Source: an uncultured Actinomycetes bacterium (lineage in GTDB: Bacteria > Actinomycetota > Thermoleophilia > Gaiellales > JAICJC01). From it: DNA of 64,000 nt. Where the stretch lies: contig CAWGSU010000004.1 of the NCBI GenBank assembly GCA_963825325.1, positions 1,152,334 through 1,216,333 of the forward strand, read 5' to 3'. Position 1 is the first letter of the stretch, and every line of letters begins with the position of its first letter. The translations under genes and the position numbers were made by a program. The notes below the pieces were generated by a model that worked only from the letters and a program-made list of their open reading frames with translations, made no database searches and was not told where the DNA came from. Below, one piece after another: positions 1 to 16,736 of the stretch.

Positions 1-796
1 CGCGTTCGTCCGGGCGGTCGGCCAGGGCGGCCAGATGCGCGGCCGGCGTGCCGTGCAGGTGCCACTCGTCGGCGTGCCCGGTGACGAGTCCCGCGGTCGA
101 CAGGCGCGCGAGGGCGTGCGAAACCGACGGCCGCTCGGCGCCGACGAGATGGCCGAGCAGGCGGTGCGTGAGGGGCAGCGGGATGCGGATCCCGCCCGGC
201 TCCACGCGTCCGAAGCGCCCGGCCAGATGCCACAAGAGCAGCGCCAGGCGCACCTCGAGGCGGGGCTGGCTCGTGATCGCGCGCTGCACGCTCAGGTCGC
301 CGGCGCGCCTGCCGGCCCGGCGCATGAGCACGTTCGAGATCTGCGGCCACGGCCGCACGCGCTCGGCGAACGCAGCGTCGAGCAGCGCGAGCCGCGACGG
401 CACCAGCGTGCGCCACTCCCACGTGCGCTCGAGCAGATCGTCGAGGCCCTGCTCCCACGCCTGCAGCAGGTCGCCGGGGCCGACGAGCTCGGTGGCGACG
501 CGATCGCCGACATGGGTGTCGACCGCCACCACTCCGTCGACCACGAGCACGCCGAACCCGCCGCCGGTGGCGGCGAACCAGTCGGCCGCCTGCTGCGCGC
601 CGGCGGGGACGTCCATCACGACGACGGTCGCCACCTGCCGGGCGACCACGCGCATGCGCAGGTCGAACTCCTGCGCCATGTCGTCGTCGAGGTCGAGCAG
701 GTAGCGGTATGACGACGACGCCTGCGGCCGGCGTGGATCCTCGCCGGGCCACTGCGAAGGCAACCGTTGATCGCGCTCGGTCTCGCTGCGGGGCAC
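1..796 (-). CDS. Crp/Fnr-family transcriptional regulator (3' end runs off the left edge, so it is absent from the ORF track)
   Basis: My own minus-strand translation starts at GTG 796, with GGGAGG 5 nt upstream. It reads VPRSETERDQ..YLLDLDDDMAQEFDLRMRVV..DRVATELVGPGDLL (cNMP-binding-like barrel) ..LTHRLLGHLVGAERPSVSHALARLSTAGLV (C-terminal HTH). I saw no stop down to position 1. An alternative ATG start lies at 679. Confidence 0.6.
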   Translation of the reverse strand, partial: MPRSETERDQRLPSQWPGEDPRRPQASSSYRYLLDLDDDMAQEFDLRMRVVARQVATVVVMDVPAGAQQAADWFAATGGGFGVLVVDGVVAVDTHVGDRVATELVGPGDLLQAWEQGLDDLLERTWEWRTLVPSRLALLDAAFAERVRPWPQISNVLMRRAGRRAGDLSVQRAITSQPRLEVRLALLLWHLAGRFGRVEPGGIRIPLPLTHRLLGHLVGAERPSVSHALARLSTAGLVTGHADEWHLHGTPAAHLAALADRPDER

Positions 797-889
797 CCGT
801 GCCTCCCATCCGTCCGTCGCGTGCGATTGTACCTTCTGTGGCGTGTCGCGACCGGGCGCGGCGCGGCCGGTTGCGGGTGGTGACGTGGC

Positions 890-930
890 GGTAATCCGGG
901 TTACCGTAGGGGTGCGTAACCCTGATTACG
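890..930. promoter_or_regulatory. Two 16-bp 5-N6-5 palindromes (GGTAATCCGGGTTACC 890-905 and CGTAACCCTGATTACG 915-930) in the divergent regulator/hypC intergenic region; candidate Crp/Fnr-type operators
   Basis: Both have perfect 5-bp inverted arms, and their centres are 25 bp apart. The spacer is also conserved when site 2 is read on the other strand (CGTAATCAGGGTTACG). GTAA/TTAC is rare in this GC-rich window. Confidence 0.45.
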
Positions 931-1044
931 CCGGCGGTTTGCCCACTCGGTGAGCCTGGTAGACATCGCGCATCGACCTCTTTGTGGCGCTCGCAACGCG
1001 GCGCCGCGAAGGAGACGTTCAGCACGCCCGAAGGAGATTGGCCC

Positions 1045-1326
1045 ATGTGCCTCGCGATTCCGGGGCAGGTGATCGAGATCGTGGACGACCGCAACCGGCT
1101 GGCGAAGGTCGAGATCGCGGGCGTGCGCCGCAACGTGAACGTGAGCCTGCTCGACGACGACGCCGGCGGCGGCGTCAAGCCGGGCGACTGGGTCCTGATC
1201 CACGTGGGCTTCGCGCTCTCCAAGGTGGATGAGGACGAAGCGCTGGCGACGCTCGCGCTGCTCGAGCAGATGGGCGCCGAGTACGAGCAGGAGCTCGAGG
1301 AGCTGAAGGCGAGCGTGATCGAGTGA
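1045..1326 (+). CDS. hypC: [NiFe]-hydrogenase maturation chaperone HypC
   Basis: The N-terminus is MCLAIPGQVIEIVDD and the protein contains PGDWVLIHVGFAL. ATG 1045 is in frame with ORF 982..1326 and is preceded by GAAGGAGA. Confidence 0.9.
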   Translation: MCLAIPGQVIEIVDDRNRLAKVEIAGVRRNVNVSLLDDDAGGGVKPGDWVLIHVGFALSKVDEDEALATLALLEQMGAEYEQELEELKASVIE

Positions 1327-1619
1327 CCGCAGGCCGGTACGCGGAGATGGCCCCCCCCAGCTCCGCCGCGCCGGCCTGCGGCCCCGACGACCACTGCATC
1401 ACCTGCGGCGATGTCGCGGTCGACCTCGCCGTCGTCCGCATCGATCCCTCCACGCGTCTCGCGTGGTGCTCGGGGGCGTCGCCGGCGGGCAGGCCGGACG
1501 CCGCCGGGGAGTGGGTGGACACCGAGCTCGTCGGCCCGGTGCGACCCGGCGACCGTGTGCTCGTCCACGCGGGCGTCGCCCTGACGCGGCTCGGCTCGCC
1601 CGCCGGCGGTGCCGCGTGA
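1323..1619 (+). CDS. HypC/HybG/HupF-family paralogue with an N-terminal extension (HCITCGD instead of N-terminal MC)
   Basis: GTG 1323 overlaps the hypC stop (GTGA). The core ..HCITCGDVAVDLAVVRID..VRPGDRVLVHAGVAL aligns with HypC (PGDWVLIHVGFAL). Confidence 0.7.
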   Translation: MTAGRYAEMAPPSSAAPACGPDDHCITCGDVAVDLAVVRIDPSTRLAWCSGASPAGRPDAAGEWVDTELVGPVRPGDRVLVHAGVALTRLGSPAGGAA

Positions 1620-2731
1620 AGTTCGTCGACGAGTTCCGCAACCCCGAGCTCGGCCGGGCCGTTGCCGGCGAGATCCTGGCGACGGTCGAGGCGGGGCGCC
1701 ACTACAAGATCATGGAGGTGTGCGGCGGGCACACCCACTCGATCTACAAGTACGGCGTGGACGACCTGCTGCCCGCGAACGTCGAGCTCGTCCACGGGCC
1801 GGGCTGCCCCGTGTGTGTGATCCCGATGGGCCGCGTCGACGACGGCATCGCGCTCGCCCACGAGCCGGACGTGATCTTCACCTGCTTCGGGGACATGCTG
1901 CGTGTGCCCGGTGCGAACGGCACGCTGATGGACGCGAAGGCCGAGGGCGCCGACGTGCGCATGGTGTACTCGCCGCTCGACGCGCTGCGCATCGCCCGCG
2001 AGAACCCCGACCGGCAGGTGGTCTTCTACGCGATCGGCTTCGAGACCACCGCGCCGTCGACCGCGCTCACGCTCAAGCGGGCCAAGGCCGAGGGCGTGAC
2101 CAACTTCTCGTGCATGTGCAACCACGTCACGATCGTGCCGCCGCTGCGGGCGCTGCTCGACTCGCCCGACCTGCGCCTGGACGGCTTCATCGGCCCGGGC
2201 CACGTCGCCACCGTCGTCGGCGGGCGCCCGTTCGAGTTCATCCCCGCCGACTACGGCCGTCCAGTGGTGATCTCCGGGTTCGAGCCGCTCGACCTGCTGC
2301 AGTCGGTGCAGATGATCCTGCGCCAGCTCGCCGACGGCCGCTGCCAGGTTGAGAACCAGTACGCGCGGGTGGTGCCGTACGAGGGCAACATGGCCGCCCT
2401 GAAGGTGATGGCCGAGGTGTTCGCGCTGCGGCCGCACTTCGAGTGGCGCGGCCTGGGCTTCATCTCGCAGAGCGCCCTGCGCCTGTCCGACGCCTACCGC
2501 GACCTCGATGCCGAGGTGCGCTACCAGGTGCCGGGCGTGCGCGTGGCCGACCCCAAGGCGTGCCAGTGCGGCGAGGTGCTGAAGGGCGTGATCAAGCCGT
2601 GGGAGTGCAAGGTGTTCGGCAGCGCCTGCACGCCCGAGCACGCGATCGGCACGTGCATGGTCTCGCCCGAGGGGGCGTGCGCCGCCTACTACAACTACGG
2701 CCGCTTCGCCCGCGACCGCGAGGTGGTGTGA
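1616..2731 (+). CDS. hypD: [NiFe]-hydrogenase maturation protein HypD
   Basis: GTG 1616 overlaps the upstream stop (GTGA). Motifs seen are VKFVDEFRNPEL, MEVCGGHTHSIYKYG, GPGCPVCV, FETTAP and the C-terminal CQCGEVL..GTCMVSPEGACAAYY. Confidence 0.95.
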   Translation: MKFVDEFRNPELGRAVAGEILATVEAGRHYKIMEVCGGHTHSIYKYGVDDLLPANVELVHGPGCPVCVIPMGRVDDGIALAHEPDVIFTCFGDMLRVPGANGTLMDAKAEGADVRMVYSPLDALRIARENPDRQVVFYAIGFETTAPSTALTLKRAKAEGVTNFSCMCNHVTIVPPLRALLDSPDLRLDGFIGPGHVATVVGGRPFEFIPADYGRPVVISGFEPLDLLQSVQMILRQLADGRCQVENQYARVVPYEGNMAALKVMAEVFALRPHFEWRGLGFISQSALRLSDAYRDLDAEVRYQVPGVRVADPKACQCGEVLKGVIKPWECKVFGSACTPEHAIGTCMVSPEGACAAYYNYGRFARDREVV

Positions 2732-2732
2732 G

Positions 2733-3827
2733 GTGCCGCGCGCGGCCGACCCCACCGACCGCGAGCAGCGGGTGCTGGACATCATCGAGACGGTGCGCTC
2801 CAAGCCGCCGAAGTTCCGCGATGCGCGCATCACCATGGCCCACGGCGCGGGCGGCAAGGCGACGCAGACGCTGATCGAGGGCCTGCTCGTGCCCGCCTAT
2901 GGGGCGGCCAGCCTCGCCGCGCTCGCCGACGCAGGCGCCGTGTCGGTCGGGGGCGTCGAGCTCGCGTTCACGACCGACAGCTTCGTCGTCAAGCCGATCC
3001 GCTTCCCCGGCGGCTCGATCGGTGAGCTGGCCGTGAACGGCACCGTGAACGACCTCGCCATGGCGGGCGCGCGGCCGCTCGCGCTGACCCTGTCCATGGT
3101 GCTCGAGGAGGGCCTCTCGGCAGACGACCTGCGCGCCGAGGTCGCGGCGATCGCCGCCGCGGCGGCCGCCGCGGGCGTCGAGATCGTCGCCGGCGACACG
3201 AAGGTCGTCGAGCGCGGGCACGCCGACTCGATGTACCTGTGCACGGCGGGGATCGGCCAGGTCGACCCGCGCGCGGCGCTCTCGCCGGCGGGCCTGCGGC
3301 CCGGCGACCGCATCCTCGTCTCGGGCTCGATCGGCGAGCACGGCACGGCGATCATGCTCGCCCGCGGCGAGTTCGACCTCGACGCCGAGGTCGAGTCCGA
3401 CACGTGCTCGCTCTGGCCGGCGGTCGACGCGCTGCTGGACGCCGCCGGCCACGACCTGCGCTGCCTGCGCGACGCCACCCGCGGCGGCGTCGCCTCGGTG
3501 CTGAACGAGCTCGCGCGCGCCTCGGGGGTGGCCATGGTCGTGCGCGAGGCGGATGTGCCGGTGCTGCCCGCGGTCGCGGGCGCGGCGGAGCTGCTCGGCA
3601 TCGACCCGATGTATGTCGCGAACGAGGGCAAGCTCGTCGCCTTCGTCGCGCCCGAGCGGTGCGAGGCGGCGCTCGCCGCGCTGCGGGCCGTGCCCGGGTG
3701 CGAGCGGGCGGTCGAGATCGGCGAGGTCAAGACCGACCCGCCGGGGATGGTGTTGGTGGAGACGGCGTTCGGCGGCAAGCGGGTCATGGACCAGCTCGTC
3801 GGCGATCCGCTGCCCAGGATCTGTTGA
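2733..3827 (+). CDS. hypE: [NiFe]-hydrogenase maturation protein HypE (carbamoyl dehydratase)
   Basis: The layout is AIR-synthase-like. Motifs seen are MAHGAGGKATQTLIE, AGDTKVVERG and the C-terminal DPLPRIC. Confidence 0.95.
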   Translation: MPRAADPTDREQRVLDIIETVRSKPPKFRDARITMAHGAGGKATQTLIEGLLVPAYGAASLAALADAGAVSVGGVELAFTTDSFVVKPIRFPGGSIGELAVNGTVNDLAMAGARPLALTLSMVLEEGLSADDLRAEVAAIAAAAAAAGVEIVAGDTKVVERGHADSMYLCTAGIGQVDPRAALSPAGLRPGDRILVSGSIGEHGTAIMLARGEFDLDAEVESDTCSLWPAVDALLDAAGHDLRCLRDATRGGVASVLNELARASGVAMVVREADVPVLPAVAGAAELLGIDPMYVANEGKLVAFVAPERCEAALAALRAVPGCERAVEIGEVKTDPPGMVLVETAFGGKRVMDQLVGDPLPRIC

Positions 3828-3855
3828 ACCACGCGGTTCCGAGAGGGAGGGTGAC

Positions 3856-4935
3856 TTGGCCACAGTCGAGTTCGTACCGAACCAGCAGCAGACCGAAGGC
3901 ATCACTGCCCACGTCCTGTGGATGACCACGGGGCTCTCGTGCGAAGGCGACTCGGTCGCGATGACCGCGGCCACGAACCCGAGCCTCGAGGACATCATCA
4001 CCGGCGTCATCCCCGGGATGCCGCGCGTCGTCATCCACAACCAGGTGATCGCCTACGAGGTCGGCCAGGAGTACATCCAGTCCTGGTACGACGCCGAGGC
4101 GGGCAAGCTCGACCCCTTCGTGCTGATCATCGAGGGCTCGATCGGCAACGAGAACATCAACGGCGAGGGCCACTGGTCGGGGTTCGGCGTCCACCCCGAC
4201 ACCGGCCAGCCGATCACCACCAACGACTGGATCGACCGGCTCGCGAACAAGGCGGCGGCGGTCGTCGCCATCGGCACCTGCGCGACCTACGGCGGCATCC
4301 CCGCCATGAAGAACAATCCCACCGGCGCGATGGGCCTGCCCGACTACCTGGGCTGGAACTGGAAGTCGAAGGCCGGCCTGCCCGTCGTGTGTATCCCCGG
4401 CTGCCCGGCGCAGCCCGACAACATGACCGAGACCCTGCTCTACCTCGTCCTGCACCTGGGCGGCCTTGCGCCCGCGCCGGAGCTCGACGACCAGCTGCGG
4501 CCGAAGTGGCTCTTCGACCGCACGACGCACGAGAGCTGCAACCGGGCCGGCTTCTACGAGATGGGCAACTTCGCCACCGAGTACGGCTCCGACCACCGCT
4601 GCCTGGTCAAGCTGGGCTGCGAAGGCCCGATCGTGAAGTGCAACGTGCCGGTGCGCGGCTGGGTCAACGGCATCGGCGGATGTCCCAACGTCGGCGGGAT
4701 CTGCATGGCCTGCACGATGCCCGGCTTCCCCGACAAGTACCTCCCGTTCATGCAGGAGGCGCCGCGATCACGGGTGACGACGATCCCCGCCCGGCTGACC
4801 TACGGCCCGATCTACAAGTTCCTGCGCAGCTGGGAGATCCGCCACAACGGCGACACCGAGCCCACCTGGCGCCACAACCGGAACGAGCTCACGAGCGGGT
4901 ACCAGCCCCGGAACTACGCCCGGAAGGGAGCATGA
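3856..4935 (+). CDS. hhyS: [NiFe]-hydrogenase small subunit, group-1h-like (no Tat signal)
   Basis: TTG 3856 lies 5-6 nt after GAGGGAGG. There is no RRxF twin-arginine motif. The first cluster motif is SCEGD (Asp where canonical enzymes have CxGC). Other motifs are GTCATYGGIPA, IPGCPAQPD and CNVP..GGCPNVGGICMACTMPGFPD. Confidence 0.9.
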   Translation: MATVEFVPNQQQTEGITAHVLWMTTGLSCEGDSVAMTAATNPSLEDIITGVIPGMPRVVIHNQVIAYEVGQEYIQSWYDAEAGKLDPFVLIIEGSIGNENINGEGHWSGFGVHPDTGQPITTNDWIDRLANKAAAVVAIGTCATYGGIPAMKNNPTGAMGLPDYLGWNWKSKAGLPVVCIPGCPAQPDNMTETLLYLVLHLGGLAPAPELDDQLRPKWLFDRTTHESCNRAGFYEMGNFATEYGSDHRCLVKLGCEGPIVKCNVPVRGWVNGIGGCPNVGGICMACTMPGFPDKYLPFMQEAPRSRVTTIPARLTYGPIYKFLRSWEIRHNGDTEPTWRHNRNELTSGYQPRNYARKGA

Positions 4936-4936
4936 C

Positions 4937-6715
4937 GTGACAACGGTCGAGACTCCGCAGGAGCGGAAGGTCATCGTCAAGGAGATGTCGTGGGATCCGA
5001 TCACGCGCATCGTGGGCAGCCTGGGCATCCACACCGAGATCGACTTCACGAACCAGCAGGTGCTCAAGTGCTACTCGACGTCGATGGTGTTCCGCGGGTT
5101 CGACATCTTCATGAAGGGCATCGATCCGCGTGACGCCCACTTCATCACGAGCCGGATCTGCGGCATCTGCGGCGACAACCACTGCACCTGCTCGTGCCTG
5201 AACCAGAACATGGCCTACGGTGTGAAGCCGCCCAAGCTCGGCGACTACGCCTACAACCTGGCCGAGTCGGCCGACTTCATGTTCGACCACGCGATCTTCA
5301 ACGACTGCATGGCCAACGTGGACTTCTGCGAGCAGATGGTCAAGGAGACGAACCCGACCCTGCTGCGCAAGGCCGAGTCGACCCCGTCCCCGCACGGCGA
5401 CATCCACGGCTACAAGACGATCGCCGACATCATGCGGGCGCTCAACCCGTTCACCGGCAGCTTCTATCTCGAGACCCTCCAGGTCGCCCGCTACACGCGC
5501 GAGATGTACTGCCTCTTCGGCGGCCGCCACACGCACCCGTCGACCATCATGCCGGGCGGCGTCTCGGCGGACATCACCCACCAGACGTGCACCGACTACT
5601 ACGTGCGGCTCATGCGCTACATCGAGTACGCCAAGCGCACCGTGCCCATGCACGACGACCTGTACGACTTCTTCCTGCAGGAGCTGCCTGGGTACGACAT
5701 GGTCGGCTACCGCGACACCGACCTGATCTGCTGGGGGTGCTTCGACGATCCCGACTACGTCGACTACAGCTACCGCGGCATGACCGAGTGGGGCCGGCAT
5801 CGCTACATCACGCCCGGCCTGGTCTTCAAGGGCGAGCTGGTGTCGACCGACCTGGTCGAGATCAACCTCGCCATCCGGATCCTGCTCGGGAGCTCCTACT
5901 TCGACGACTGGTCGAGCGAGGAGACGTTCGTGCATACCGATCCGCTCGGGAACCCGGTCGACAAGCGCCACCCGTGGAACAAGGTGACGCTGCCCAAGCC
6001 GCAGAAGCGCGACTGGACGGACAAGTACAGCTGGGTGGTCTCGCCGCGGATGTACGACGCCCGCAACGACACCTACGTCGCCTGCGACACCGGCGGCGGC
6101 CCGTTCGCCCGCCAATGGGTGACGGCGAAGGCCGGCCTGGTCGACATCGGCTACCTGAAGGCCACCGGTCACAGCCTGCAGATGGTGCTCCCGAAGACCG
6201 CCAGCATGCCGGAGATGGAGCTCGAGTGGAAGATCCCGGAGAAGTCGAACGCGATCGAGCGTGACCGGGCCCGCTCCTACCACCAGGCCTACTCGGCCCT
6301 CGTCGGGCTGCACTGCCTCGAGAAGGCCCTGGGCGAGATCCGGGCCGGGCGCACGAAGAGCTGGAACAACTTCAAGGTGCCCCAGGAGGCTGTGAGCGTC
6401 GGCTTCCACGAGGCCGCGCGCGGAGTGCTCTCGCACCACATGGTGATCCGGGGCGGCAAGATCGCGAACTACCAGCCGTACCCGCCGACGCCGTGGAACG
6501 CGAACCCGCGCGACGTCTACGGGACGCCGGGCCCGTACGAGGACGCCGTCCAGAACACCCCCATCTTCGAGGAGAACGGCCCCGAGGACTTCAAGGGAGT
6601 CGACATCATGCGGGCGGTGCGCTCGTTCGACCCGTGCCTGCCGTGTGGCGTGCACATGTACACGGGGGCCGGACGGGTGCGCAAGGTGGAGCATCGCCCG
6701 ACCGGACTCTGCTGA
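4937..6715 (+). CDS. hhyL: [NiFe]-hydrogenase large subunit, group-1h-like
   Basis: The N-terminal Ni-binding motif is SRICGICGDNHCTCS. The C-terminal motif is SFDPCLPCGVHMY, followed by a 17-aa tail that would be removed by the endopeptidase. GTG 4937 lies 1 nt after the small-subunit stop. Confidence 0.95.
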   Translation: MTTVETPQERKVIVKEMSWDPITRIVGSLGIHTEIDFTNQQVLKCYSTSMVFRGFDIFMKGIDPRDAHFITSRICGICGDNHCTCSCLNQNMAYGVKPPKLGDYAYNLAESADFMFDHAIFNDCMANVDFCEQMVKETNPTLLRKAESTPSPHGDIHGYKTIADIMRALNPFTGSFYLETLQVARYTREMYCLFGGRHTHPSTIMPGGVSADITHQTCTDYYVRLMRYIEYAKRTVPMHDDLYDFFLQELPGYDMVGYRDTDLICWGCFDDPDYVDYSYRGMTEWGRHRYITPGLVFKGELVSTDLVEINLAIRILLGSSYFDDWSSEETFVHTDPLGNPVDKRHPWNKVTLPKPQKRDWTDKYSWVVSPRMYDARNDTYVACDTGGGPFARQWVTAKAGLVDIGYLKATGHSLQMVLPKTASMPEMELEWKIPEKSNAIERDRARSYHQAYSALVGLHCLEKALGEIRAGRTKSWNNFKVPQEAVSVGFHEAARGVLSHHMVIRGGKIANYQPYPPTPWNANPRDVYGTPGPYEDAVQNTPIFEENGPEDFKGVDIMRAVRSFDPCLPCGVHMYTGAGRVRKVEHRPTGLC

Positions 6716-6725
6716 GAGGAGCGGC

Positions 6726-7568
6726 ATGAACGACCCGATGGAGCGGGTCTCCGAGCTCACCGCGGCCCTCGAAGCGCTCGAGGACGGGGATGCCCGCAGG
6801 CTGGCCGAGGAGCTCGTCGGGGCGGTGGTCGACCTCTACGGAGAGGGCCTCGCTCGCATCATGGACGTGCTCGCCGACGATTCCCTGGCCGCCGGCGAGC
6901 TGCGGGGACGGTTGGCGGCCGACGGCCTGGTCGCCAGCCTCCTGCTCGTGCACGACCTCTATCCGGTGCCGCTCGAGGAGCGCGTGCTCGCGGCGCTTGC
7001 CTCGGTGCGTCCCTACATGGAGTCGCACGGCGGCGACGTCGAGCTGCTTGGGATCGACGCGGGGGTGGCGCGGCTGCGCCTGGTCGGCCACTGCCATGGC
7101 TGCCCGGCGTCGATGCAGACGCTCGAGCTCGCAATCACCGACGCGCTCGAGGAGCGGGCGCCCGACCTGCTGGGCGTCGAGGTCGAGGGCCTGGCCGAGC
7201 CCGCGCAGCCGGCCGGCGGCGGCATGACCGCGATCCGGGGCCGGCTGGCGGCGCCCACCTGGCTCCCGGTCGAGGCGGCGGGCGACGTCGCCCCCGGCGC
7301 GGTCGCGACGGTGACGCTGCGCGGTGCCGAGATGGTGGTCGCAAACGTCGCGGGCACCCTGCTCGCCTACCGCAGCGAGTGCCCGTGCTGCGGCAGCGGC
7401 CTTGCCGACGCGACCCTCGAGGGCGAGATCCTCGCCTGTGACAAGTGTCACCACGGGTACGTGCTCACCGAGGCCGGCCGGGCCGTCGGCTCCGACGACG
7501 TCCATCTCGATCCGGTGCCGCTGCTTCGGCGTGACGGCGTCGGGGTCGCCGTGGCGGTCGCCACGTGA
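6726..7568 (+). CDS. Hydrogenase-associated NifU-like / Cys-rich Rieske-like two-domain protein (HhyE/HucE-like)
   Basis: The NifU C-terminal-type motif is VRPYMESHGGDVELLGI..RLVGHCHGCPASMQTL. The C-terminal domain carries ECPCCG-x15-CDKCHHGY. ATG 6726 is in frame with ORF 6645..7568. Confidence 0.75.
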   Translation: MNDPMERVSELTAALEALEDGDARRLAEELVGAVVDLYGEGLARIMDVLADDSLAAGELRGRLAADGLVASLLLVHDLYPVPLEERVLAALASVRPYMESHGGDVELLGIDAGVARLRLVGHCHGCPASMQTLELAITDALEERAPDLLGVEVEGLAEPAQPAGGGMTAIRGRLAAPTWLPVEAAGDVAPGAVATVTLRGAEMVVANVAGTLLAYRSECPCCGSGLADATLEGEILACDKCHHGYVLTEAGRAVGSDDVHLDPVPLLRRDGVGVAVAVAT

Positions 7569-8212
7569 GCGCGGGCGTCCCTCCCTCTGCGCCCAACCCC
7601 GAGGTGGTCACGAGCCTGCGCCGGCTGGCGCGGTCGCGTACGGCGGCTGCGCCGCCGGCGGCCGCTCCGGCCGGCGCGCGCTGCGACCTGTGCGGCACGA
7701 CGATCGACGAGGAGCACCGCCACCTGCTCCAGCTCGCCGAGCACCGCATCCTGTGCGCGTGCGAGCCGTGCTTCGCCATGCGGGCGGGCGATCCCGATCT
7801 GCGCCCGACGGGGACGCGGGTGGCGGTGCTGAACGGCTTCGACCTCCCCGACGAGCTCTGGGCCGCGTTCCAGATCCCGATCGGCCTCGCGTTCTTCTTC
7901 CGCACCGCCGACGGCGTCGTGGCGTTCTATCCCAGCCCGGCCGGAGCGACCGAGTCGGAGCTCTACCTCGAGGCGTGGGACGACCTGGTGGCCAGAAACG
8001 CCGCGCTCGCCGGCCTCGAGCAGGAGGTCGAGGCGCTGATCGTCGACCGCTTGAGCGAGCCGCGCAACTACGCGATCGTCCCCATCGACCGCTGCTACGA
8101 GCTCGTCGGCGCGATCAAGGCGAGCTGGCAGGGCATCTCGGGCGGGAGCGCGGTCGAGGATGCGGTGGCCGCGTTCTTCGCCGCGTTGCACGGGCGCCGG
8201 AGCGTCGCGTGA
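7565..8212 (+). CDS. Uncharacterised hydrogenase-cluster protein with CxxC..CxCxxC motif (recalls DUF5947, from memory)
   Basis: The start has a 4-nt overlap (GTGA) with the upstream gene. The Cys motif is ARCDLCGTTIDEEHRHLL..ILCACEPCF. It is on the same strand, and the codon bias matches its neighbours. Confidence 0.7.
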   Translation: MSAGVPPSAPNPEVVTSLRRLARSRTAAAPPAAAPAGARCDLCGTTIDEEHRHLLQLAEHRILCACEPCFAMRAGDPDLRPTGTRVAVLNGFDLPDELWAAFQIPIGLAFFFRTADGVVAFYPSPAGATESELYLEAWDDLVARNAALAGLEQEVEALIVDRLSEPRNYAIVPIDRCYELVGAIKASWQGISGGSAVEDAVAAFFAALHGRRSVA

Positions 8213-8868
8213 GCGCGGTCCCGGCGCTCGAGTTCACGGTGCTCGGGGCGTCGTGCGTCGAGGACGCCGCCGCGCCGACCCTGCGCGTCGACCTCGGCGT
8301 GAGCGAGAGCGCCGGCCTCGAGGTGTTCACGATCGCGCTCACCGCCCAGATCAACATCGACCCGTCGCGGCGCAGCTACGACCCCGAGACGCGCACGCGC
8401 CTGATCGAGCTCTTCGGCGAGCCGGAGCGATGGTCTCAGACGACGCACAGCTTCCTGTGGGCCTACTCGAGCGCGCTCGTGCCGAGCTTCACCGGCACGA
8501 CCACCTTCTCGCTCCCGATCGCGTGCACGTACGACCTCGAGGTGGCGGCGACCAAGTACTTCGCCGGTCTGCCCGGCGGGCACGTCCCGCTCACGTTCCA
8601 CTTCAACGGCTCGATCCTGCACCGGGCTCCGGGCGGCGACATCCAGGTGGTCGCGATCCCGTGGTCGTGCTCCGCCCGCTGGCGGATGCCGGTCGAGACG
8701 TGGCGGGGGATGATGGACCGCCACTACCCGAACTCGAGCTGGGTGCGGCTGCACCCTGACACGACCGACTCGCTGCGCAGGTACACCGCCGAGGCGGGCC
8801 TGTTCTCGATGGATGCCGCGATCGTGCGGCTGCTCGAGTCGGCGACGTCGCCCGAGGCCGGCGCATGA
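8209..8868 (+). CDS. Uncharacterised hydrogenase-cluster protein (recalls DUF6084, from memory)
   Basis: GTG 8209 overlaps the upstream stop (GTGA) and is in frame with ORF 7324..8868. The sequence reads VSAVPALEFTVLGASCVEDAAAPTL..IALTAQINIDPSRRSYD. Confidence 0.7.
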   Translation: MSAVPALEFTVLGASCVEDAAAPTLRVDLGVSESAGLEVFTIALTAQINIDPSRRSYDPETRTRLIELFGEPERWSQTTHSFLWAYSSALVPSFTGTTTFSLPIACTYDLEVAATKYFAGLPGGHVPLTFHFNGSILHRAPGGDIQVVAIPWSCSARWRMPVETWRGMMDRHYPNSSWVRLHPDTTDSLRRYTAEAGLFSMDAAIVRLLESATSPEAGA

Positions 8869-9746
8869 GCGCCGACGCGGCACTCGAGTCGCTGCTCGAC
8901 GCGCTCCTCTACGAGGGCTACGCGCTCTATCCATACACCGGGACAGCGGCCAAGAACGCGACCCCGACGCCCTTCGGGATCGTCTACCCGCCCGCCTATG
9001 CCCACGCCGCCCCGGCCGCGTTCGACATGCTGCGCATGCACGGCGTGGTGCAGGGCAACGGCGACGCCTCGGTGGCGGCCGAGGTGCGGCTGCTGCAGGC
9101 CGCGCCGGAGGGCGGGCACCGGGCGCTCGAGCGGCGGCTGCCCGCGCTTGCGGGGACGCTTGCCGGCCTGGCCGAGAGCTCCCACGTCGAGACGTTCGGC
9201 CTGAACGGCATCTCGGGCCGGGTGCGGCTCTCGGTGCGACCGCTGCATCCCGACGTCTGGCGGATCGCGCTCTGCGTGCACAACACGACGTCGGTGCCGC
9301 CCGGCGTTGATCGCACCACCGCACTGCGCTCGAGCCTGCTCTCGACCCACCCGGTGGTGCGGGTGGGCGGCGCGCGCTTCGCGTCGCCGCTCGAGCGGAC
9401 GGGCGTGCTCGGCCATGCCGTGTCCGGCTGCGGGAGCATCAACACCTATCCCGTGCTCGCGGGGGAGGCCGACGACGTGCTCGTCGGGGCGACGATCATG
9501 CTCCCCGACCACCCGCAGCTCGCGCCCGAGAGCCGTGGCAACCTGTTCGACGGCACCGAGATCGAGGAGGCGCTGCTCCTGCATGTGATGGCGCTCTCCG
9601 ACGACGAGCGCGATCAGGTGACGGGCGGCGACCCGGCGCTGCGCGAGATGGTCGAGCGGGCGGCGGCGGCGACGCCGGAGGACCTGCTGCGGCTGCACGG
9701 CCGCACCGTGCTGTCCGACCCCGCGCCGGAGGGGGGACGGTCATGA
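8865..9746 (+). CDS. Uncharacterised hydrogenase-cluster protein (293 aa)
   Basis: It overlaps both neighbours by ATGA. It begins MSADAALESLLDALLYEGYALYPYT. I recognise no motif. Confidence 0.7.
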   Translation: MSADAALESLLDALLYEGYALYPYTGTAAKNATPTPFGIVYPPAYAHAAPAAFDMLRMHGVVQGNGDASVAAEVRLLQAAPEGGHRALERRLPALAGTLAGLAESSHVETFGLNGISGRVRLSVRPLHPDVWRIALCVHNTTSVPPGVDRTTALRSSLLSTHPVVRVGGARFASPLERTGVLGHAVSGCGSINTYPVLAGEADDVLVGATIMLPDHPQLAPESRGNLFDGTEIEEALLLHVMALSDDERDQVTGGDPALREMVERAAAATPEDLLRLHGRTVLSDPAPEGGRS

Positions 9747-10039
9747 TGGAGGGGTTCGGCGCGCGCGGCGAGCCGCCGGTCGGCGAGGAGCAGGCCGTGG
9801 TCGACGGCGTCACCTACCGCCGGGGCGACAAGGTGCGCCTGCGGCTGACCGAGCGCACCGACCCGTACGACCGCATCCTCGACGGCAGGGTGGCGACGCT
9901 CGAGCGGATCTACTACGACTACGAGGACAAGCTCTACTTCGGTGCGACGATCGACGACGACCCGGGGCAGGACCTGATGCGCGAGACCGGCCGGTTCCTG
10001 TTCTTCTTCGCAGGCGAACTGGAGGCATACCCGACGTGA
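9743..10039 (+). CDS. Uncharacterised small hydrogenase-cluster protein (98 aa)
   Basis: It has an ATGA overlap upstream and a GTGA overlap downstream. The sequence includes ..DGRVATLERIYYDYEDKLYFGATIDDDPG. Confidence 0.65.
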   Translation: MMEGFGARGEPPVGEEQAVVDGVTYRRGDKVRLRLTERTDPYDRILDGRVATLERIYYDYEDKLYFGATIDDDPGQDLMRETGRFLFFFAGELEAYPT

Positions 10040-10551
10040 CAGACCGTAACGAGAAGCAGATCCTGGTGGCGGGCATCGGCAACTCGTGGCTGCGCGACGA
10101 CGGCTTCGGCGGCGAGGTCGCCCGCCGACTTGCCGGGCGCGAGCTGCCGGCCGGCGTGACGGTCGCCGACTTCGGCACCGGCGGGCTCGACCTGGCCTAC
10201 GAGGTCATGCGCGGCTACGACGCGCTCGTCCTGATCGATGTCAGCCGCCAGGGCGAGCCGCCTGGCACGCTGTACGTGATGGAGGCCGACGAGGCCGACG
10301 TCGCCGCCGGGATCGCCGATGGTGACATGATCGACCCGCATGCGATGGATCCCGAGAGCGTGCTGCGCTTCGTCAAGGCCGTCGGCGGCTGGCCGGGCAA
10401 GGTGATCGTGATCGCCTGTGAGCCGGACGAGGTCGAGGAGGTCGGGATCGGCCTTTCGGGCCCGATCGCGGCGTCGATCGACCGCGCGGTCGAGCTCGTC
10501 CTGGAGACGATCGCGGGTCTGCGCGGCGATGCCCCTCTCGAGGTGGGCTGA
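10036..10551 (+). CDS. Hydrogenase maturation endopeptidase (HyaD/HupD family)
   Basis: Motifs seen are ILVAGIGNSWLRDDGFGGEV, DFGTGGLDLAYEV and ALVLIDV..GEPPGTLY. Confidence 0.9.
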   Translation: MTDRNEKQILVAGIGNSWLRDDGFGGEVARRLAGRELPAGVTVADFGTGGLDLAYEVMRGYDALVLIDVSRQGEPPGTLYVMEADEADVAAGIADGDMIDPHAMDPESVLRFVKAVGGWPGKVIVIACEPDEVEEVGIGLSGPIAASIDRAVELVLETIAGLRGDAPLEVG

Positions 10552-10558
10552 AAGCCCC

Positions 10559-10921
10559 ATGCACGAGCTGTCCGTCGCGAGTGCCGTCGTCGACACCGCC
10601 ACCCGCCACGCCGAGGGCCGCCGCGTGACGGCGGTGCAGCTGCGCGTCGGACACCTGCGCCAGGTCGTGCCCGACTCGCTCGCGTTCTACTTCGACCACG
10701 TCGCCGTCGGCACGCTCTGCGAAGGCGCCCGGCTGGAGCAGCAGATCGTGCCGGCGCGCCTCGTGTGCGAGGCCTGCAAGCACGAGTGGGAGCTCGGCGA
10801 GGCGATGTTCCGCTGCCCCCGCTGCGACGCCACGCGGGTGCAGATCACGGCCGGCAACGAGCTCTGTGTCGAGTCGATCGAAGTCGAGGAGCGGGAGGCC
10901 GCATGCATCGCACCAAGGTGA
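10559..10921 (+). CDS. hypA: Nickel-inserting maturation protein HypA
   Basis: The N-terminus has the MHE motif. The zinc site is CEACKHEW..CPRCD. ATG 10559 is in frame with ORF 10418..10921. Confidence 0.9.
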   Translation: MHELSVASAVVDTATRHAEGRRVTAVQLRVGHLRQVVPDSLAFYFDHVAVGTLCEGARLEQQIVPARLVCEACKHEWELGEAMFRCPRCDATRVQITAGNELCVESIEVEEREAACIAPR

Positions 10922-11580
10922 GGGTGCTCGAGGACGTGCTCGACGCGAACGCGACGATCGCACGCGCGAACAGGGACGACTTCGACCGCGCGGGGGTGCG
11001 CGTCGTCAACATGATGAGCTCGCCCGGCGCCGGCAAGACGACGCTGCTCGAGCGCACGCTGGCCGACCTCGCCGGCGTGCGCGTCGGCGTGCTCGAGGGC
11101 GACGTCGCCGGCACGCTCGACGCCGACCGCATCGCGGGCATCCACGTCCCGGTGACGCAGATCAACACCGAGGCCGGCTTCGGCGGCGAGTGCCATCTCG
11201 ACGCGAACATGGTGCGCTCGGCGATCCCGGCGCTGCCGCTGGGCGAGATCGACCTGCTCGTGATCGAGAACGTCGGCAACCTCGTGTGCCCGGCCGAGTT
11301 CCGGGTCGGCGAGGACGTGCGCGTGATGGTCGCGTCGGTCGCCGAGGGCGAGGACAAGCCGCTCAAGTACCCGCTCATGTTCCGCACGTGCGAGCTCGTG
11401 CTCGTGAACAAGATCGACCTGCTGCCGTACGTCGACTTCGACATGGACCGGTTCAACTACCACCTGGACGCGGTCCACCCAGGCGTGCCGCGCCTGCTGA
11501 TGAGCGCGCGCACCGGCGACGGGGTGGATGCGTGGCGCGAGTGGCTGCGCGAGTTCGCGCTCGAGCGCCAGCCGGCGTGA
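10903..11580 (+). CDS. hypB: Nickel-dependent GTPase HypB
   Basis: The protein reads MHRTKVRVLEDVL.. with the SPGAGKTT P-loop, ENVGNLVCPAEF and NKIDLL. It overlaps hypA by 19 nt. I saw no N-terminal CxxCGC motif or His stretch. Confidence 0.9.
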   Translation: MHRTKVRVLEDVLDANATIARANRDDFDRAGVRVVNMMSSPGAGKTTLLERTLADLAGVRVGVLEGDVAGTLDADRIAGIHVPVTQINTEAGFGGECHLDANMVRSAIPALPLGEIDLLVIENVGNLVCPAEFRVGEDVRVMVASVAEGEDKPLKYPLMFRTCELVLVNKIDLLPYVDFDMDRFNYHLDAVHPGVPRLLMSARTGDGVDAWREWLREFALERQPA

Positions 11581-12785: not shown

Positions 12786-14003
12786 TCAGACCTCGGCCGC
12801 CAACGTGTCGGGGTCGGCGGCCACAGCGGCGAGGGGGTCGCCGCGCAGCCGCAGCCCGAGCATCGGGTAGACGAGCGTCGAGAGCACCGCCGCGCCGATG
12901 AGGGCGGCGGCGGTCGACGCCCGCATGTGGCCGGTCCTCGTTGCGAGCGTCGTGATCGCGAGGACGAGCGGCAGCTGCGTCGATGACATCAGCGCCAGTG
13001 CGGCCCGTTCACGGGCATCGAGCACCCCCCGGTAGAGCACGAGCGCCGGCGTCCCGCGCACCACGAGGAACAGGAAGAAGAACACCACCATCTTGACGAT
13101 GCCGGAGGGGCTGGAGACGAGCGCGGGCAGGTCCAGGCTCATCCCGCTCGCCACGAAGAAGAACGGCACGAACACGCCGAACGCCACCGCCGTCAGCTTG
13201 GAGTCGAAGGCGGGCAGCTCGCGCGTCTTCAGCACCTGGCGGGTGATCATGCCGGCCGCGAACCCGCCCAAGAGGAGGTCGAGACCGAGCTTGAACGCCA
13301 GGAAGGCGAGCGCGAACACGAGCGCGACGATCCAGCGCACGGCGAGCTGGGAGCTGCTCTCGAGGGTCCGCTCGAACAGCGGAAACGTGCGTGCCGACGA
13401 CCGCACGGCGAAGACGGCGACGCTCACGGCGAGCGCGACGAACGCGATCAGGATGAGGGCGTTGTGCTCGGTGCCCTGGCTGGACAGGAGCAGTGTGAGC
13501 AGAAGGATCGGCCCGAACTCGCCGACGGCGCCCGCGGCCAGCATGTAGGTACCGAAACGGGTGCGCAGCTCGCCGGCGTCGGAGAGGATCGGGATCAGCA
13601 TCCCGATCGCCGTCGTCGCGAGCGCCGATCCGGTGTAGAGCAGCGAGAGCACGACCCCGAACGCGGCCAGCACGCCCCCGATGGTGTAGGCGAGCGCGAG
13701 CGAGAGCCCCCAGCCGAGCAGGCCGAGCCGAAGCGGCGCGCCCCTGATCCGCTGGATGTCGATCTCGTAGCCCGCGAAGAAGAAGAGCAGGCCGAGGCCG
13801 AGGTCGGCGAAGAACGTGACGAACTGGTCGACCTTCAGGCCGAATCCGTGCGGCCCGATGATCACGCCGATCACGAGCTCGATGACGACCACCGGGATGA
13901 GAACGCCGCGCCCGCCTGCCACCGCCGCCAGGCTGCCGGCCAGCGCCGAGGCGGCGACGATGGCGAGAAACGTCGCCGGGTCGACGTGGATCAGGTAGAG
14001 CAT
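12786..14003 (-). CDS. Cation:proton antiporter (Na+/H+ exchanger family)
   Basis: The protein is polytopic, reading MLYLIHVDPATFLAIVAAS..GVIIGPHGFGL..FFFAGYEID. Its ATG overlaps the Fur-like stop (TGATG). The 49-aa N-terminal extension in the track is Arg-rich shadow. Confidence 0.85.
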   Translation of the reverse strand: MLYLIHVDPATFLAIVAASALAGSLAAVAGGRGVLIPVVVIELVIGVIIGPHGFGLKVDQFVTFFADLGLGLLFFFAGYEIDIQRIRGAPLRLGLLGWGLSLALAYTIGGVLAAFGVVLSLLYTGSALATTAIGMLIPILSDAGELRTRFGTYMLAAGAVGEFGPILLLTLLLSSQGTEHNALILIAFVALAVSVAVFAVRSSARTFPLFERTLESSSQLAVRWIVALVFALAFLAFKLGLDLLLGGFAAGMITRQVLKTRELPAFDSKLTAVAFGVFVPFFFVASGMSLDLPALVSSPSGIVKMVVFFFLFLVVRGTPALVLYRGVLDARERAALALMSSTQLPLVLAITTLATRTGHMRASTAAALIGAAVLSTLVYPMLGLRLRGDPLAAVAADPDTLAAEV

Positions 14004-14458
14004 CACGCGCGGCCTTCGGCGTCCGCGCACGCGGCGCACAGCCCGACGATCGGGAAGTGGGTGAAGCGGGCCTGGACGCCGAACCGCTCGTGGATCAGGT
14101 CGCGCACCGGGTCGAGCTCCTCCGGCGCGATGGCGCGCACGGCGCCGCACCCCTCGCAGTAGACGTACTCGCGCTCGCCGGGCACGACCAGGGCGTGCAG
14201 CCCGGGCCCGTGGCCGAGGTGCACGTGGCGCACGACGCCGTGGGCTTCGAGCGTCTCCAGGTTGCGGTACACCGACGCGGTGTCGAGACCGAGGCCGGTG
14301 GCGAGCTGTTCGGCCGATACCGGCCCATCGGCCGCGAACAGCGCCTCGAGCACGAGCCGCCGCGGCGTGGAGATGCGCAGGCCGCGCTCGCGCAACGCCG
14401 CCAGAGCCTCGTCCAGGCCGGCGAACGCGAGCGTCGGGACGCGCGGAGCCTCGGTCAT
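14003..14458 (-). CDS. Fur-family metalloregulator (possibly nickel-responsive, Nur-like)
   Basis: The winged helix reads PRRLVLEALF..SAEQLA..SVYRNLETLEAHGVV. It also has HVHLGHGPGLHA and the CEGCG..CAAC zinc site. Confidence 0.85.
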   Translation of the reverse strand: MTEAPRVPTLAFAGLDEALAALRERGLRISTPRRLVLEALFAADGPVSAEQLATGLGLDTASVYRNLETLEAHGVVRHVHLGHGPGLHALVVPGEREYVYCEGCGAVRAIAPEELDPVRDLIHERFGVQARFTHFPIVGLCAACADAEGRA

Positions 14459-14471: not shown

Positions 14472-15476
14472 CTATCCCGGCGTGTCGGCTCCGGCGCTCC
14501 AGCGCTCCTCGATACGGCCGAAGTGCCACACCGCGAGCGACACCGCCCATGTGACGACGAACATGCCGACGATCACGAAGCCGACGGCGCTCATGTCGGG
14601 ACCTCCGCCCGCGAAGATCCCGGCGAGCTCGATCGTCCCGACCCCCAGCGCGACCAGGGCCGAGAGCCCGGTGATGGTGATGTTGTAGTAGACCTTGCGC
14701 ACGGGCTGCGAGAACGCCCACCCGTAGGCGAAGTTCATGAACGAGCCGTCGATCGTGTCGAGCAGCGACATGCCGGCGGCGAACAGGATCGGCAGGCACA
14801 GGATCGCGTAGAACGGCAGGCCCGCACCCGCGGCGCCGGCGGCCAGGAAGAGCAGCGCCACCTCGCTGGCCGTATCGAACCCGATGCCGAAGAGCAGGCC
14901 GAGCGGGTACATCTGCCACGGGTGCCGGATCGCGCGGGTGAAGCGGCCGTAGATGCGGTTCAGGAACCCGCGTGTGTTCAGCCGGTGCTCGAGGTCGGCC
15001 TGGTCGTAGCTGCCGCGGCGCATGTCGCGGAAGACTCCGACGATCCCGACCAGAATGATCAGGTTCAGGATTCCGATCACGTACAGGAACGTCCCCGACA
15101 CGCCGGTGCCGACGAGGCCGGTGATGTGATGCAGTCGCGACTCCGGGTTCGTCACGGGGCCGCCCAGCGCGCGCACGCCGATGGCGAACAGGAACGCCAG
15201 CGCGAACACGACCGACGAGTGCCCGAGCGAGAAGAAGAACCCGACGCTCATGGGCCGCTTGCCCTCGGACATGAGCTTGCGCGTGGTGTTGTCGATGGCC
15301 GCGATGTGGTCGGCGTCGAACGCGTGCCGCAGGCCGAGCGTGTAGGCGGTGAGGCCGATCCCGATCGTGAAGGCGCCCGAGTCGCCGAGGCGGTAGTGGT
15401 GAGGCGCGATGACGGCGATCAGCAGGAAGAAGCCGACCACGTGCAGCCCGCCCACGACGATCGCCATCGCCGCCAC
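14472..15476 (-). CDS. NiCoT (HoxN/HupN/NixA) nickel/cobalt permease
   Basis: The signature LRHAFDADHIAAIDNTTRKL is followed by FFFSLGHSSVV. About 8 TM segments are visible. Confidence 0.9.
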   Translation of the reverse strand: MAAMAIVVGGLHVVGFFLLIAVIAPHHYRLGDSGAFTIGIGLTAYTLGLRHAFDADHIAAIDNTTRKLMSEGKRPMSVGFFFSLGHSSVVFALAFLFAIGVRALGGPVTNPESRLHHITGLVGTGVSGTFLYVIGILNLIILVGIVGVFRDMRRGSYDQADLEHRLNTRGFLNRIYGRFTRAIRHPWQMYPLGLLFGIGFDTASEVALLFLAAGAAGAGLPFYAILCLPILFAAGMSLLDTIDGSFMNFAYGWAFSQPVRKVYYNITITGLSALVALGVGTIELAGIFAGGGPDMSAVGFVIVGMFVVTWAVSLAVWHFGRIEERWSAGADTPG

Positions 15477-15546: not shown

Positions 15547-15620
15547 CGACCCTAGTTCGGGTCGGTCGCTCCTGCAAGGAGGTCGCGTTAAGCGGCCGGC
15601 GGGCGGTAATCAGGCTGACC
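15547..15620. promoter_or_regulatory. Upstream region of the nickel operon, with GGTAATCAGGCTGACC (15605-15620, third copy of the GTAA-N6-TTAC-like motif) and the inverted repeat CGACCC-N6-GGGTCG (15547-15564)
   Basis: The 16-mer is 13/16 identical to 890-905. It shares the 9-nt run GTAATCAGG with the reverse strand of 915-930. Confidence 0.3.
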
Positions 15621-15632: not shown

Positions 15633-16736
15633 TCAGCGGTCGCGCAGGCGGCCGATGCGCTCGTTCGCGCCCGAGGCCCAGCACGCGCCGCCCGGCGTGC
15701 ACGCGACCGCGTCGAAGCTGCCGGCGTCGAACTGCGTCCACGCAAAGCCGCCGTCGGTGGTGATGTCGCTGCCGGTCAGGCCGACCGCGAGCGCCGTGCC
15801 TGACGTGTGCGGCACCCACGTCGCGCCGGAGCGATAGCCGTCCGGGGCGGCACCCGCGGCGACGAGCGTCCAGGTGCGGCCGCCGTCGCCGGTCAGCGCG
15901 AGCGCGCGCGGCGCCGTCGCCGGTGTGGCGAAGTCGCCGCCGATCGCGAGGCCCTGCGCCTGCGACCGGAAAGCGACCGCGAACACGCCGGCGCTCGCGC
16001 CGCGGTGAAGCGGCGTCTGGGACACCTTCCAGGTGCGGCCGCCGTCGGCGGAGCGGTACACGCGCGAGCCGGCTGGGCCGCCGCTGCCGAACCAGGCGTG
16101 GCGGTGGCCCGAGGTCGTGATGCACTCGTTGCTCGCGGCGAAGCCGTACTCGTTCGGCGCGTGCGCCCTCGGCACGTTGCGGGCCGGGTCGATGCGCCAG
16201 CTGCGCCCGCCGTTCGCCGTGATCAGGATCCGGAAGCGCCCGTTCACGGGGTCGCTCAGGATCAGGCCGTGGCGGCGGTCGAAGAAGGCCATGCAGTCGT
16301 AGAACGCCTGCGGGTTCGCGTTGCGGTTCGTGATCCGCCAGTGCCTGCCGCCGTCGGCGGTGAGGTAGGTGCGGAAGTCTCCGGGCGCGTTTCCGATCGA
16401 CATCAGCACGGCGTGGTTGCGGTCAAACGCCTTCAGGCCGCGGAACTCGAGCGCGCTCGTGCCGGCTGGGCCGACGCTCTGCCATGCGCGGCCGCCGTTC
16501 GTGGTGCGAAGGACGGTGCCGTTGCTGCCGCTCGCCCACGCGACCCGGGCGCTCACGGGGCTGATCGCGCGCAGATCGGCGCTGCCGCCGTGATGGACGA
16601 CCTGCCAGTGCGGGCGGCCGTGCCCGGACGCCGTCGCCACGGCGGCTGCGAGCGCGGTCCCTGCCACGAGCATCACCACGCCGATTCGCGTCCCGATCGG
16701 CACCCTCCCCATGGCGGCCATCATACCCCGCCGCAC
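15633..16736 (-). CDS. Secreted BNR-repeat beta-propeller protein (Ycf48/sialidase-like fold)
   Basis: It has a signal-like N-terminus. Six S/T-x-D/N-G-G-x-x-W repeats are present (TTNGGRAW, TADGGRHW, TANGGRSW, SADGGRTW, TGDGGRTW, TTDGGFAW). Confidence 0.7.
   Translation of the reverse strand: MRRGMMAAMGRVPIGTRIGVVMLVAGTALAAAVATASGHGRPHWQVVHHGGSADLRAISPVSARVAWASGSNGTVLRTTNGGRAWQSVGPAGTSALEFRGLKAFDRNHAVLMSIGNAPGDFRTYLTADGGRHWRITNRNANPQAFYDCMAFFDRRHGLILSDPVNGRFRILITANGGRSWRIDPARNVPRAHAPNEYGFAASNECITTSGHRHAWFGSGGPAGSRVYRSADGGRTWKVSQTPLHRGASAGVFAVAFRSQAQGLAIGGDFATPATAPRALALTGDGGRTWTLVAAGAAPDGYRSGATWVPHTSGTALAVGLTGSDITTDGGFAWTQFDAGSFDAVACTPGGACWASGANERIGRLRDR

Follow-up and report, generated by a model that had tools for sequence, protein, structure and literature searches.

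Several CRP/FNR-family proteins, FnrN/FixK acting on hup-hyp in rhizobia and CooA acting on the coo hydrogenase, directly activate hydrogenase or hydrogenase-maturation operons from an upstream palindrome; their boxes take the form TTGAT-N4-ATCAA or TGTCA-N6-CGACA, and O2 or CO is sensed via a Cys-ligated Fe-S cluster or haem. A different solution is found in the HoxA/HupR systems, in which an NtrC-type response regulator encoded with the hydrogenase genes works with a histidine kinase and a two-subunit sensor hydrogenase, HoxBC/HupUV. Among the CRP-type proteins, cAMP-CRP, GlxR, and MtbCRP recognize TGTGA-N6-TCACA sites, CRP doing so with a recognition helix that reads R-E-T-V-G-R. The cyanobacterial regulator NtcA, on the other hand, recognizes the box GTA-N8-TAC through Arg186, Val187, Thr190, and Arg191, of which Val187, the counterpart of the CRP Glu, has been experimentally shown to be the discriminator (PMC11850224), and NtcA boxes are placed at -41.5 (PMC3898017). 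High-affinity [NiFe] hydrogenases (Hhy, Huc) have been described as the main biological sink of atmospheric H2, and according to two 2026 papers the signals to which they respond and their direct regulators are still unidentified; in Mycobacterium smegmatis, for example, the huc promoter is not bound by Crp1, Crp2, or GylR (PMC13098282, PMC13289019).

The locus studied here lies at one end of a 64-kb stretch of DNA with a G+C content of 72% (the window), in which two closely spaced palindromes accompany the gene of a CRP/FNR-superfamily regulator.

2-796, minus strand: CRP/FNR-superfamily regulator gene, starting with GTG at 796; its last ~13 codons lie beyond the window edge
890-905, no strand assigned: site 1, GGTAATCCGGGTTACC, distal to hypC and proximal to the regulator gene; 24.7 bits with the family matrix
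915-930, no strand assigned: site 2, CGTAACCCTGATTACG, proximal to hypC; 24.1 bits with the family matrix

Both sites fall inside the 248-bp intergenic region that separates the regulator gene from the divergent hypC, and both show the dyad of CRP/FNR operators, with 5-bp arms, a 6-bp gap, and a total dyad of 14-16 bp. A sequence-only reading of this DNA had placed two 16-mers at 890-905 and 915-930, at 95-135 nt from the regulator gene and 115-155 nt from hypC; the coordinates are those found in the sequence, and the distances hold with the GTG at 796 and the ATG at 1045. Exact matches to GTAA-N6-TTAC occur twice in the window (cores at 891-904 and 916-929), against 0.04 expected from the mean of 100 dinucleotide-preserving shuffles, none of which gave two. 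In a repeat search, the two cores were also returned as a 14-nt inverted repeat, 93% complementary and 11 nt apart.

The same palindrome accompanies the regulator gene throughout its family. One genome per GTDB species was scanned for orthologues of the regulator, yielding 80 loci of ~8.7 kb each (L001-L080; 56-87% identity), all from Thermoleophilia MAGs of the Gaiellales and Solirubrobacterales. All 80 loci carry at least one exact GTAA-N6-TTAC at ~30-270 nt upstream of the match to the regulator, a count that overstates the number of independent observations because the loci are phylogenetically related, and none was found outside the regulator-hypC intergenic region in these ~690 kb. The 120 motif matches thus all sit at the same place, with a chance estimate of <1 for DNA of 72% G+C, and the conservation upstream of orthologous loci by which the sequence-only reading had proposed to check its motif is borne out. 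In 79 of the 80 loci, hypC-hypD-hypE-hhyS runs divergently from the regulator gene, the exception in synteny being L049, which carries a HypC-like ORF in the position of hypC. The symmetrized consensus is gGTAATCnnGATTACc, in extended form GTAATC-NN-GATTAC, which explains the conserved spacer that had been noticed between the two sites of the window, as it reflects an extended consensus shared across loci. Sites 1 and 2 are real and strongly conserved sites, putatively bound by a regulator. A matrix built from the conserved sites, for which ~0.07 matches are expected in the window at ≥16 bits, finds only three places at ≥10 bits: sites 1 and 2 and a third site at 15605-15620 (site 3), which the earlier reading had overlooked. 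The weaker relative that it had proposed instead, at 57494-57509 upstream of an HD-GYP gene, needs 3 mismatches, scores <10 bits with the family matrix, and was rejected as a further site.

Most loci carry a pair of sites. Two sites were recognized in 74 of 81 sequences (the 80 loci and the window), in three arrangements: two full sites 24-25 bp apart from center to center (36 sequences, including the window), a full site together with a GTCA(C)-N-ATTAC variant at 14-15 bp on the hypC side (~31 sequences), and two full sites 34-36 bp apart (5 sequences). A single recognizable site was seen in 7 sequences. The distances to the second site rise in steps of ~10 bp. Since the distance between the distal and the proximal site is 15, 25, or 35-36 bp, the classes lie about one helical turn apart, and within each spacing class of L001-L080 the two sites are ~0.4 turn out of phase with each other.

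The presumed target of these sites is the operon that begins with hypC and encodes maturation and structural genes of a group-1h-type [NiFe] hydrogenase; assignments are by Pfam.

1045-11580, plus strand: presumed target operon, hypC to hypB
1045-1326, plus strand: hypC, starting with ATG at 1045
~1347-1619, plus strand: HypC/HupF-like ORF with a CxxC motif; borderline HupF/HypC match of 28.5 bits, equal to the cut-off
~1610-2731, plus strand: hypD
2733-3827, plus strand: hypE
3856-4935, plus strand: hhyS
4937-6715, plus strand: hhyL
6729-7568, plus strand: NifU-Rieske gene
7565-8212, plus strand: DUF5947 gene, followed by unassigned ORFs
10036-10551, plus strand: HycI-type protease gene
10556-10921, plus strand: hypA
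ending at 11580, plus strand: hypB

The common strand and the short gaps suggest that hypC to hypB form one operon. The gap of ~280 nt between hypC and hypD is present in related loci too. Among the annotated genes of the cluster, no other regulator gene was seen, and beyond the hyp-hhy cluster a Na/H exchanger gene lies on the minus strand, near a FUR-family gene and nicT. On the other side of the locus, just off the left edge of the window, related genomes carry a second group-1h-type small-subunit gene, here called hhyS2, on the same strand after the regulator gene (in L001 at 4825-5988). It occupies that position in 74 of the loci L001-L080, and in 40 of these 74 its start overlaps the regulator stop codon by 4 nt. 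Its product is 64% identical to the HhyS of the window, has HofK (5aa5) as its best PDB match (E 1.6e-133), and keeps the cluster-binding cysteines in a comparison by eye. No large-subunit gene adjoins hhyS2 in loci L001-L080; downstream of it are hypF, a small Cys-rich ORF, or unrelated genes. The hhyS2 product may serve as an alternative subunit or as the regulator's partner.

The regulator gene starts with a GTG that follows a GGGAGG Shine-Dalgarno sequence 5 nt upstream, and its product has a complete CRP fold but no cNMP-binding signature. HTH_Crp_2 is its sole Pfam match, with no match to the cNMP_binding domain, and the only NCBIfam match, to PtrA, is weak (26 bits; cut-off 300). In the PDB, the profile built from the orthologues aligns with GlxR, MtbCRP, and NtcA over its C-terminal half alone (E 3e-7 to 5e-3). 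The AF2 model (pLDDT 87.5, built on 109 sequences) shows the complete CRP architecture of beta-barrel, long dimerization helix, and winged HTH, and its top Foldseek matches, MtbCRP and NtcA (E 3e-12), extend over the full length (~220-240 columns). The residue equivalent to Arg82, which binds cAMP in CRP, is variable among the orthologues in an alignment read by eye. The protein has no cysteine in its 265 residues, which excludes FNR-type Fe-S and thiolate-ligated haem sensing, and cAMP or an FNR-type Fe-S cluster is unlikely to be its signal. The closest homologues come from Gaiellales and Solirubrobacterales MAGs, and a plasmid search for relatives returned nothing beyond a weak Crp/Fnr match of 35% identity. 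The regulator belongs to a large uncharacterized CRP-like family of 986 clusters at E ≤ 1e-30, for which none of the sources gives a function. The recognition helix could be read in 98 of the best 150 representatives of these clusters and is R-P-[ST]-V-[ST]-x in nearly all of them, a terminal His marking the hydrogenase-linked branch among these best 150; the readable representatives of the same set also share the N-terminal motif LLDxDxDL.

Compared with the described systems, the regulator and its sites show a mixture of shared and divergent traits. The sites have the 5-N6-5 palindrome geometry of the cAMP-CRP, GlxR, and MtbCRP sites, and GlxR (4cyd) and MtbCRP (3i54) are the closest relatives of the regulator in sequence and fold, but the half-site here is GTAAT and not TGTGA, with an A where the CRP half-site needs a G. 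The recognition helix, R-P-S-V-S-H, is invariant among the orthologues and is aligned by HMMER to R-E-T-V-N-K of GlxR. It keeps the Arg that reads the G (Arg180 in CRP), whereas Pro replaces Glu181, which in CRP reads the G:C of TGTGA where GTAAT has A, and His replaces Arg185. Unlike CRP, the regulator has no recognizable cNMP-binding cassette, and its regulon appears local and not global. As judged from the alignment, the Pro at the position of CRP Glu181 fits the replacement of G by A in the half-site; NtcA offers a parallel, with Val, likewise non-polar, at this otherwise acidic position. The likeness to NtcA extends to the sites, GTAA-N6-TTAC being a subset of GTA-N8-TAC with the same dyad spacing and the same G-T-A core, and to a common fold, NtcA being among the top Foldseek matches. 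The regulator is no NtcA orthologue, however: the profile of the orthologues matches NtcA in the PDB over the DNA-binding half alone, with E values of 8e-4 to 5e-3, there is no match to an NtcA model in NCBIfam, the host is an actinobacterium, and all homologues come from Thermoleophilia MAGs. The recognition helix of NtcA ends in Arg and that of the regulator in His, the extended consensus here is GTAATC-N2-GATTAC, and the NtcA regulon concerns nitrogen, whereas hydrogenase and nickel uptake are concerned here. The promoter layout differs as well, since an NtcA box at -41.5 lies ~22 nt upstream of a TAN3T -10 element, whereas here the distance is 30 nt, the inferred center lies at -49.5, and the sites are in tandem. 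The FNR/FixK anaerobox, TTGAT-N4-ATCAA, is a different box, and the regulator, in contrast to those proteins with their N-terminal Cys cluster for [4Fe-4S], is cysteine-free. As in the HoxA/HupR systems, a dedicated regulator is encoded with the hydrogenase genes, and hhyS2, co-transcribed with the regulator here, is loosely similar to the sensory hydrogenase HoxBC/HupUV, but a kinase, a receiver domain, and a second large subunit are all lacking. Overall, the locus is best described as a candidate operator-regulator pair of the known CRP/FNR kind, set apart by its half-site and its regulon, both of them new, and by an unusual promoter register that is kept fixed; nothing seen so far points to a new mechanism.

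The position of the sites relative to the genes they flank could be examined through elements conserved across loci. A generic sigma-70 scan of 700-1100 gave no promoter, and promoter elements were for this reason taken from cross-species alignment.

957-965, plus strand: TGGTAGACA, extended -10-like box of the inferred hypC-operon promoter, from cross-locus conservation
826-831, minus strand: TACAAT, likely -10 of the regulator promoter; most loci have similar hexamers upstream of the regulator gene

Downstream of the hypC-proximal site, alignment reveals a box with the consensus TG[GA]TA[GT]A[AC]C that is kept across loci. The gap between the site and this box is 26-28 nt (27±1) in 69 of the 80 hypC-bearing sequences (79 loci and the window), and 37-38 nt, i.e. 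one helical turn more, in 5 of the 80; from the site core to the -10 hexamer the distance is 30 nt. In 14 loci, the start predicted 7 nt downstream of the hexamer lies 0-3 nt from the hypC start codon, and exactly on the codon in 8; these hypC genes mostly begin with GTG and have no Shine-Dalgarno sequence, and their start is certain because HypC must begin with Met-Cys. The simplest reading is that the hypC mRNA is leaderless in these 14 loci and that the box is thus an extended -10. For the window, the hypC transcription start is predicted near 972; the mRNA would then have a 73-nt leader carrying GGAGA ahead of the ATG at 1045, and from this start site 2 would be centered at about -49.5 and site 1 at about -74.5. 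The cross-locus alignment holds no conserved information in the 27 nt between site and box that could represent a -35 element, and the -10 hexamers (TAGAAC, TATACC, TAGACA) are without the usual terminal T. A SigF/SigB-like promoter, GTTT-N16-GGTA, can be made out by eye in the window and its closest relatives, but this reading was dropped because the pattern is not conserved across the family. Five loci (L014, L017, L018, L039, and L061) have one GTAA-N6-TTAC but two copies of the box, TGGTAGAAC, ~22-23 nt apart; the doubled box may represent tandem promoters or point to a second role of the box.

On the regulator side, TAGACT- or TACAAT-type hexamers lie at variable distances of 6-130 nt from the sites. 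In the window, the regulator transcription start is predicted near 819, which would center site 1 at about -78.5. Two loci, L003 and L004, have a site directly next to the -10 of the regulator gene, only 6 nt away, where it would repress the regulator promoter, so that autorepression is possible there. The distances from the regulator-side site to the -10 cluster near 6, 16, 27, 37, 50, 60, and 90 nt; these clusters follow phylogenetic groups, and no claim of helical phasing is made from them.

Site 3 lies upstream of a nickel transporter gene, beyond the hydrogenase cluster.

15605-15620, no strand assigned: site 3, GGTAATCAGGCTGACC, or GGTCAGCCTGATTACC when read towards nicT; 19.4 bits; upstream of nicT, center at about -70.5
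15549-15554, minus strand: TAGGGT, probable -10 for nicT, at 51 nt from the site 3 core
14472-15476, minus strand: nicT, HoxN/NiCoT nickel transporter (NCBIfam NicT, E 2e-150)
14003-14458, minus strand: FUR-family (Nur-like) gene after nicT (Pfam FUR)

The nicT regions of the closest relatives (L161, L162/L163, L164, and L165; 79-93% protein identity) carry a variant of site 3 in 5 of 5 loci, namely GGTCAGCCGGATTACC, GGTCACCCTGATTACC (twice), TGTCAGCCGGATTACC, and GGTCATCACGATTACC, with varying spacers and diverged flanks. In the window, L161, L162, and L165, exactly 51 nt separate the site core from a TAGGGT/TAGGCT hexamer, and in L162 TAGGCT is followed by 6 nt and an ATG, a leaderless layout that supports the hexamer as the nicT -10. 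The center of site 3 at about -70.5 is two helical turns beyond -49.5, and its degenerate half-site faces away from nicT, like the abutting arrangement at hypC. Among more distant NiCoT loci from metagenomes (58-72% identity), a site was found in 1 of 80 (L085); this distribution suggests that nicT belongs to the regulon only in the lineage of the close Gaiellales relatives. The pairing of nicT with the FUR-family gene is also found in L161, L162, and L164. Between site 3 and the nicT -10, at 15566-15591 on the minus strand, there is an element, TTAACGCGACCTCCTTGCAGGAGCGA, that contains TTGCA(A/G) and is conserved in L161, L162, and L165. Because a FUR-family (Nur-like) gene follows nicT, this element may be a nickel-repressor box, in which case the nicT promoter would be doubly controlled. 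The predicted nicT start at ~15542 is an ATG in L162 and an in-frame ATC in the window, L161, and L165. The frame is open from there to the annotated GTG at 15476, with conservation at the protein level (…RRRIGAALTAAQWR…), and the ATC could be a non-canonical start or reflect a start that was mis-set.

A canonical CRP-type palindrome is also present in the window. The perfect box TGTGAGCCGGCTCACA at 16770-16785, the only exact match, lies between a BNR-repeat gene (15633-16736, minus strand) and a divergent NHL-repeat gene (~16925-18037, plus strand). With ≤1 mismatch allowed, the canonical CRP box has 2 matches in the window against 0.6 expected, which is not significant.

Our analyses point to a model in which a dimeric factor of the CRP/FNR fold, most likely the product encoded at 2-796 on the minus strand, would bind both palindromes as tandem operators and activate hyp-hhy, with nicT in the same regulon, and we regard this model as a whole as probable. 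The operators would lie upstream of the hyp-hhy core promoter in a fixed register of about -49.5 and -74.5, from which the bound dimers would recruit or stabilize RNA polymerase in the way of class I/II activators of the CRP family, and the single site at about -70.5 would tie nicT to the regulon in this lineage. Since the promoter of the regulator gene has the sites upstream of it as well, autoregulation is possible. In their tandem upstream placement, the sites recall the class I and class III layouts of CRP promoters. That the regulator most likely acts as an activator of hyp-hhy follows from the weak core promoter, the lack of a -35 element, and the fixed or one-turn-shifted register; we infer the binding protein, the transcription start, and the sign of control from the DNA and its relatives. 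The proposal of the sequence-only reading, that operators of CRP/FNR geometry with a non-canonical half-site serve the adjacent regulator and control hyp-hhy, is thereby supported, with the regulator as the putative binding protein. Several points speak against the model. The centers of -49.5, -74.5 (hypC), and -70.5 (nicT), which are counted from predicted starts, are to be set against the classical -41.5, -61.5, and -71.5, and -49.5 is not a classical class I or II position of CRP (-61.5 and -41.5). The 25-bp spacing of ~2.4 turns puts sites 1 and 2 on different helical faces, the -10 is without its final T, the site of L003 and L004 lies at the regulator -10, and the nicT site is absent in the distant NiCoT loci.

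The main rival to activation is that the same protein acts at the same sites as a repressor or dual regulator, shutting the divergent promoters until a signal arrives. It might, for example, occlude an UP element or alpha-CTD contacts, assemble into a higher-order complex, or obstruct the promoter of its own gene. Autorepression is common among divergently transcribed local regulators, the -49.5 center is not a canonical activating position, and the site lying 6 nt from the regulator -10 in L003 and L004 would overlap the -35 and spacer region. Repression nevertheless seems to us rather unlikely, since the hypC-side sites are always clear of both the -10 box and the predicted start and keep 27±1 nt, or one turn more, from the box, the lack of a conserved -35 and the imperfect -10 are typical of activator-dependent promoters, and the nicT site at -70.5 is so far upstream that it has little to block. 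It is also conceivable that a factor encoded elsewhere, such as a general CRP/GlxR orthologue, binds the sites and that the neighboring regulator has other targets, as the pairing of regulator and site is putative and the canonical box TGTGAGCCGGCTCACA indicates that a conventional CRP probably operates here. The joint occurrence of site and regulator gene in all 80 loci makes this improbable, as does the difference between GTAAT and TGTGA at precisely the base read by Glu181, where the neighboring protein has Pro; moreover, more than three sites would be expected for a global factor in the 64 kb of the window and the ~690 kb of related loci.

Two further explanations do without a binding protein. 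The inverted 14-mers might pair into a hairpin or cruciform, for instance within a structured leader RNA, since the segment 880-940 folds into a 14-bp stem (-27.6 kcal/mol, z = -2.25) and the two cores form a 93% inverted repeat, but this is very unlikely: in 41 two-site loci, the complementarity of the spacers is 2.85/6 within a locus and 2.88/6 between loci, the sites of 31 loci abut at a spacing of 15 bp, 7 loci have a single site, and the sites lie upstream of both inferred promoters. With no excess complementarity across loci and no Rfam match, the RNA-element reading was rejected. Nothing but the short length of the palindromes speaks for a chance occurrence. Two matches were found where 0.04 were expected, and the motif recurs at the same position in every one of the 80 loci and is absent from the rest of the ~690 kb; we consider chance a negligible explanation.

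The regulator described here is a testable candidate for a direct regulator of a hydrogenase of the atmospheric-H2 type, and neither it nor its motif was found described in our literature search. A bolder idea, which we offer as a speculation with rather little chance of being right, is that regulator and HhyS2 together form a new kind of sensor, in which the redox or H2 status of Hhy would be passed to a cysteine-free, cAMP-independent CRP-fold factor and from there, via GTAATC-N2-GATTAC operators, to the structural, maturation, and nickel-uptake genes of the hydrogenase; if true, this would be the first signaling route described for hydrogenases that oxidize atmospheric H2. For the 986-cluster CRP-like family (E ≤ 1e-30), the sites provide a first plausible DNA motif and function for one of its branches, and the matrix can be used for scanning genomes and metagenomes. 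For the Thermoleophilia, a class of abundant soil actinobacteria, our analyses define a candidate regulator, an operator sequence, a likely promoter architecture, and a small putative regulon that would join hyp-hhy to nickel uptake.
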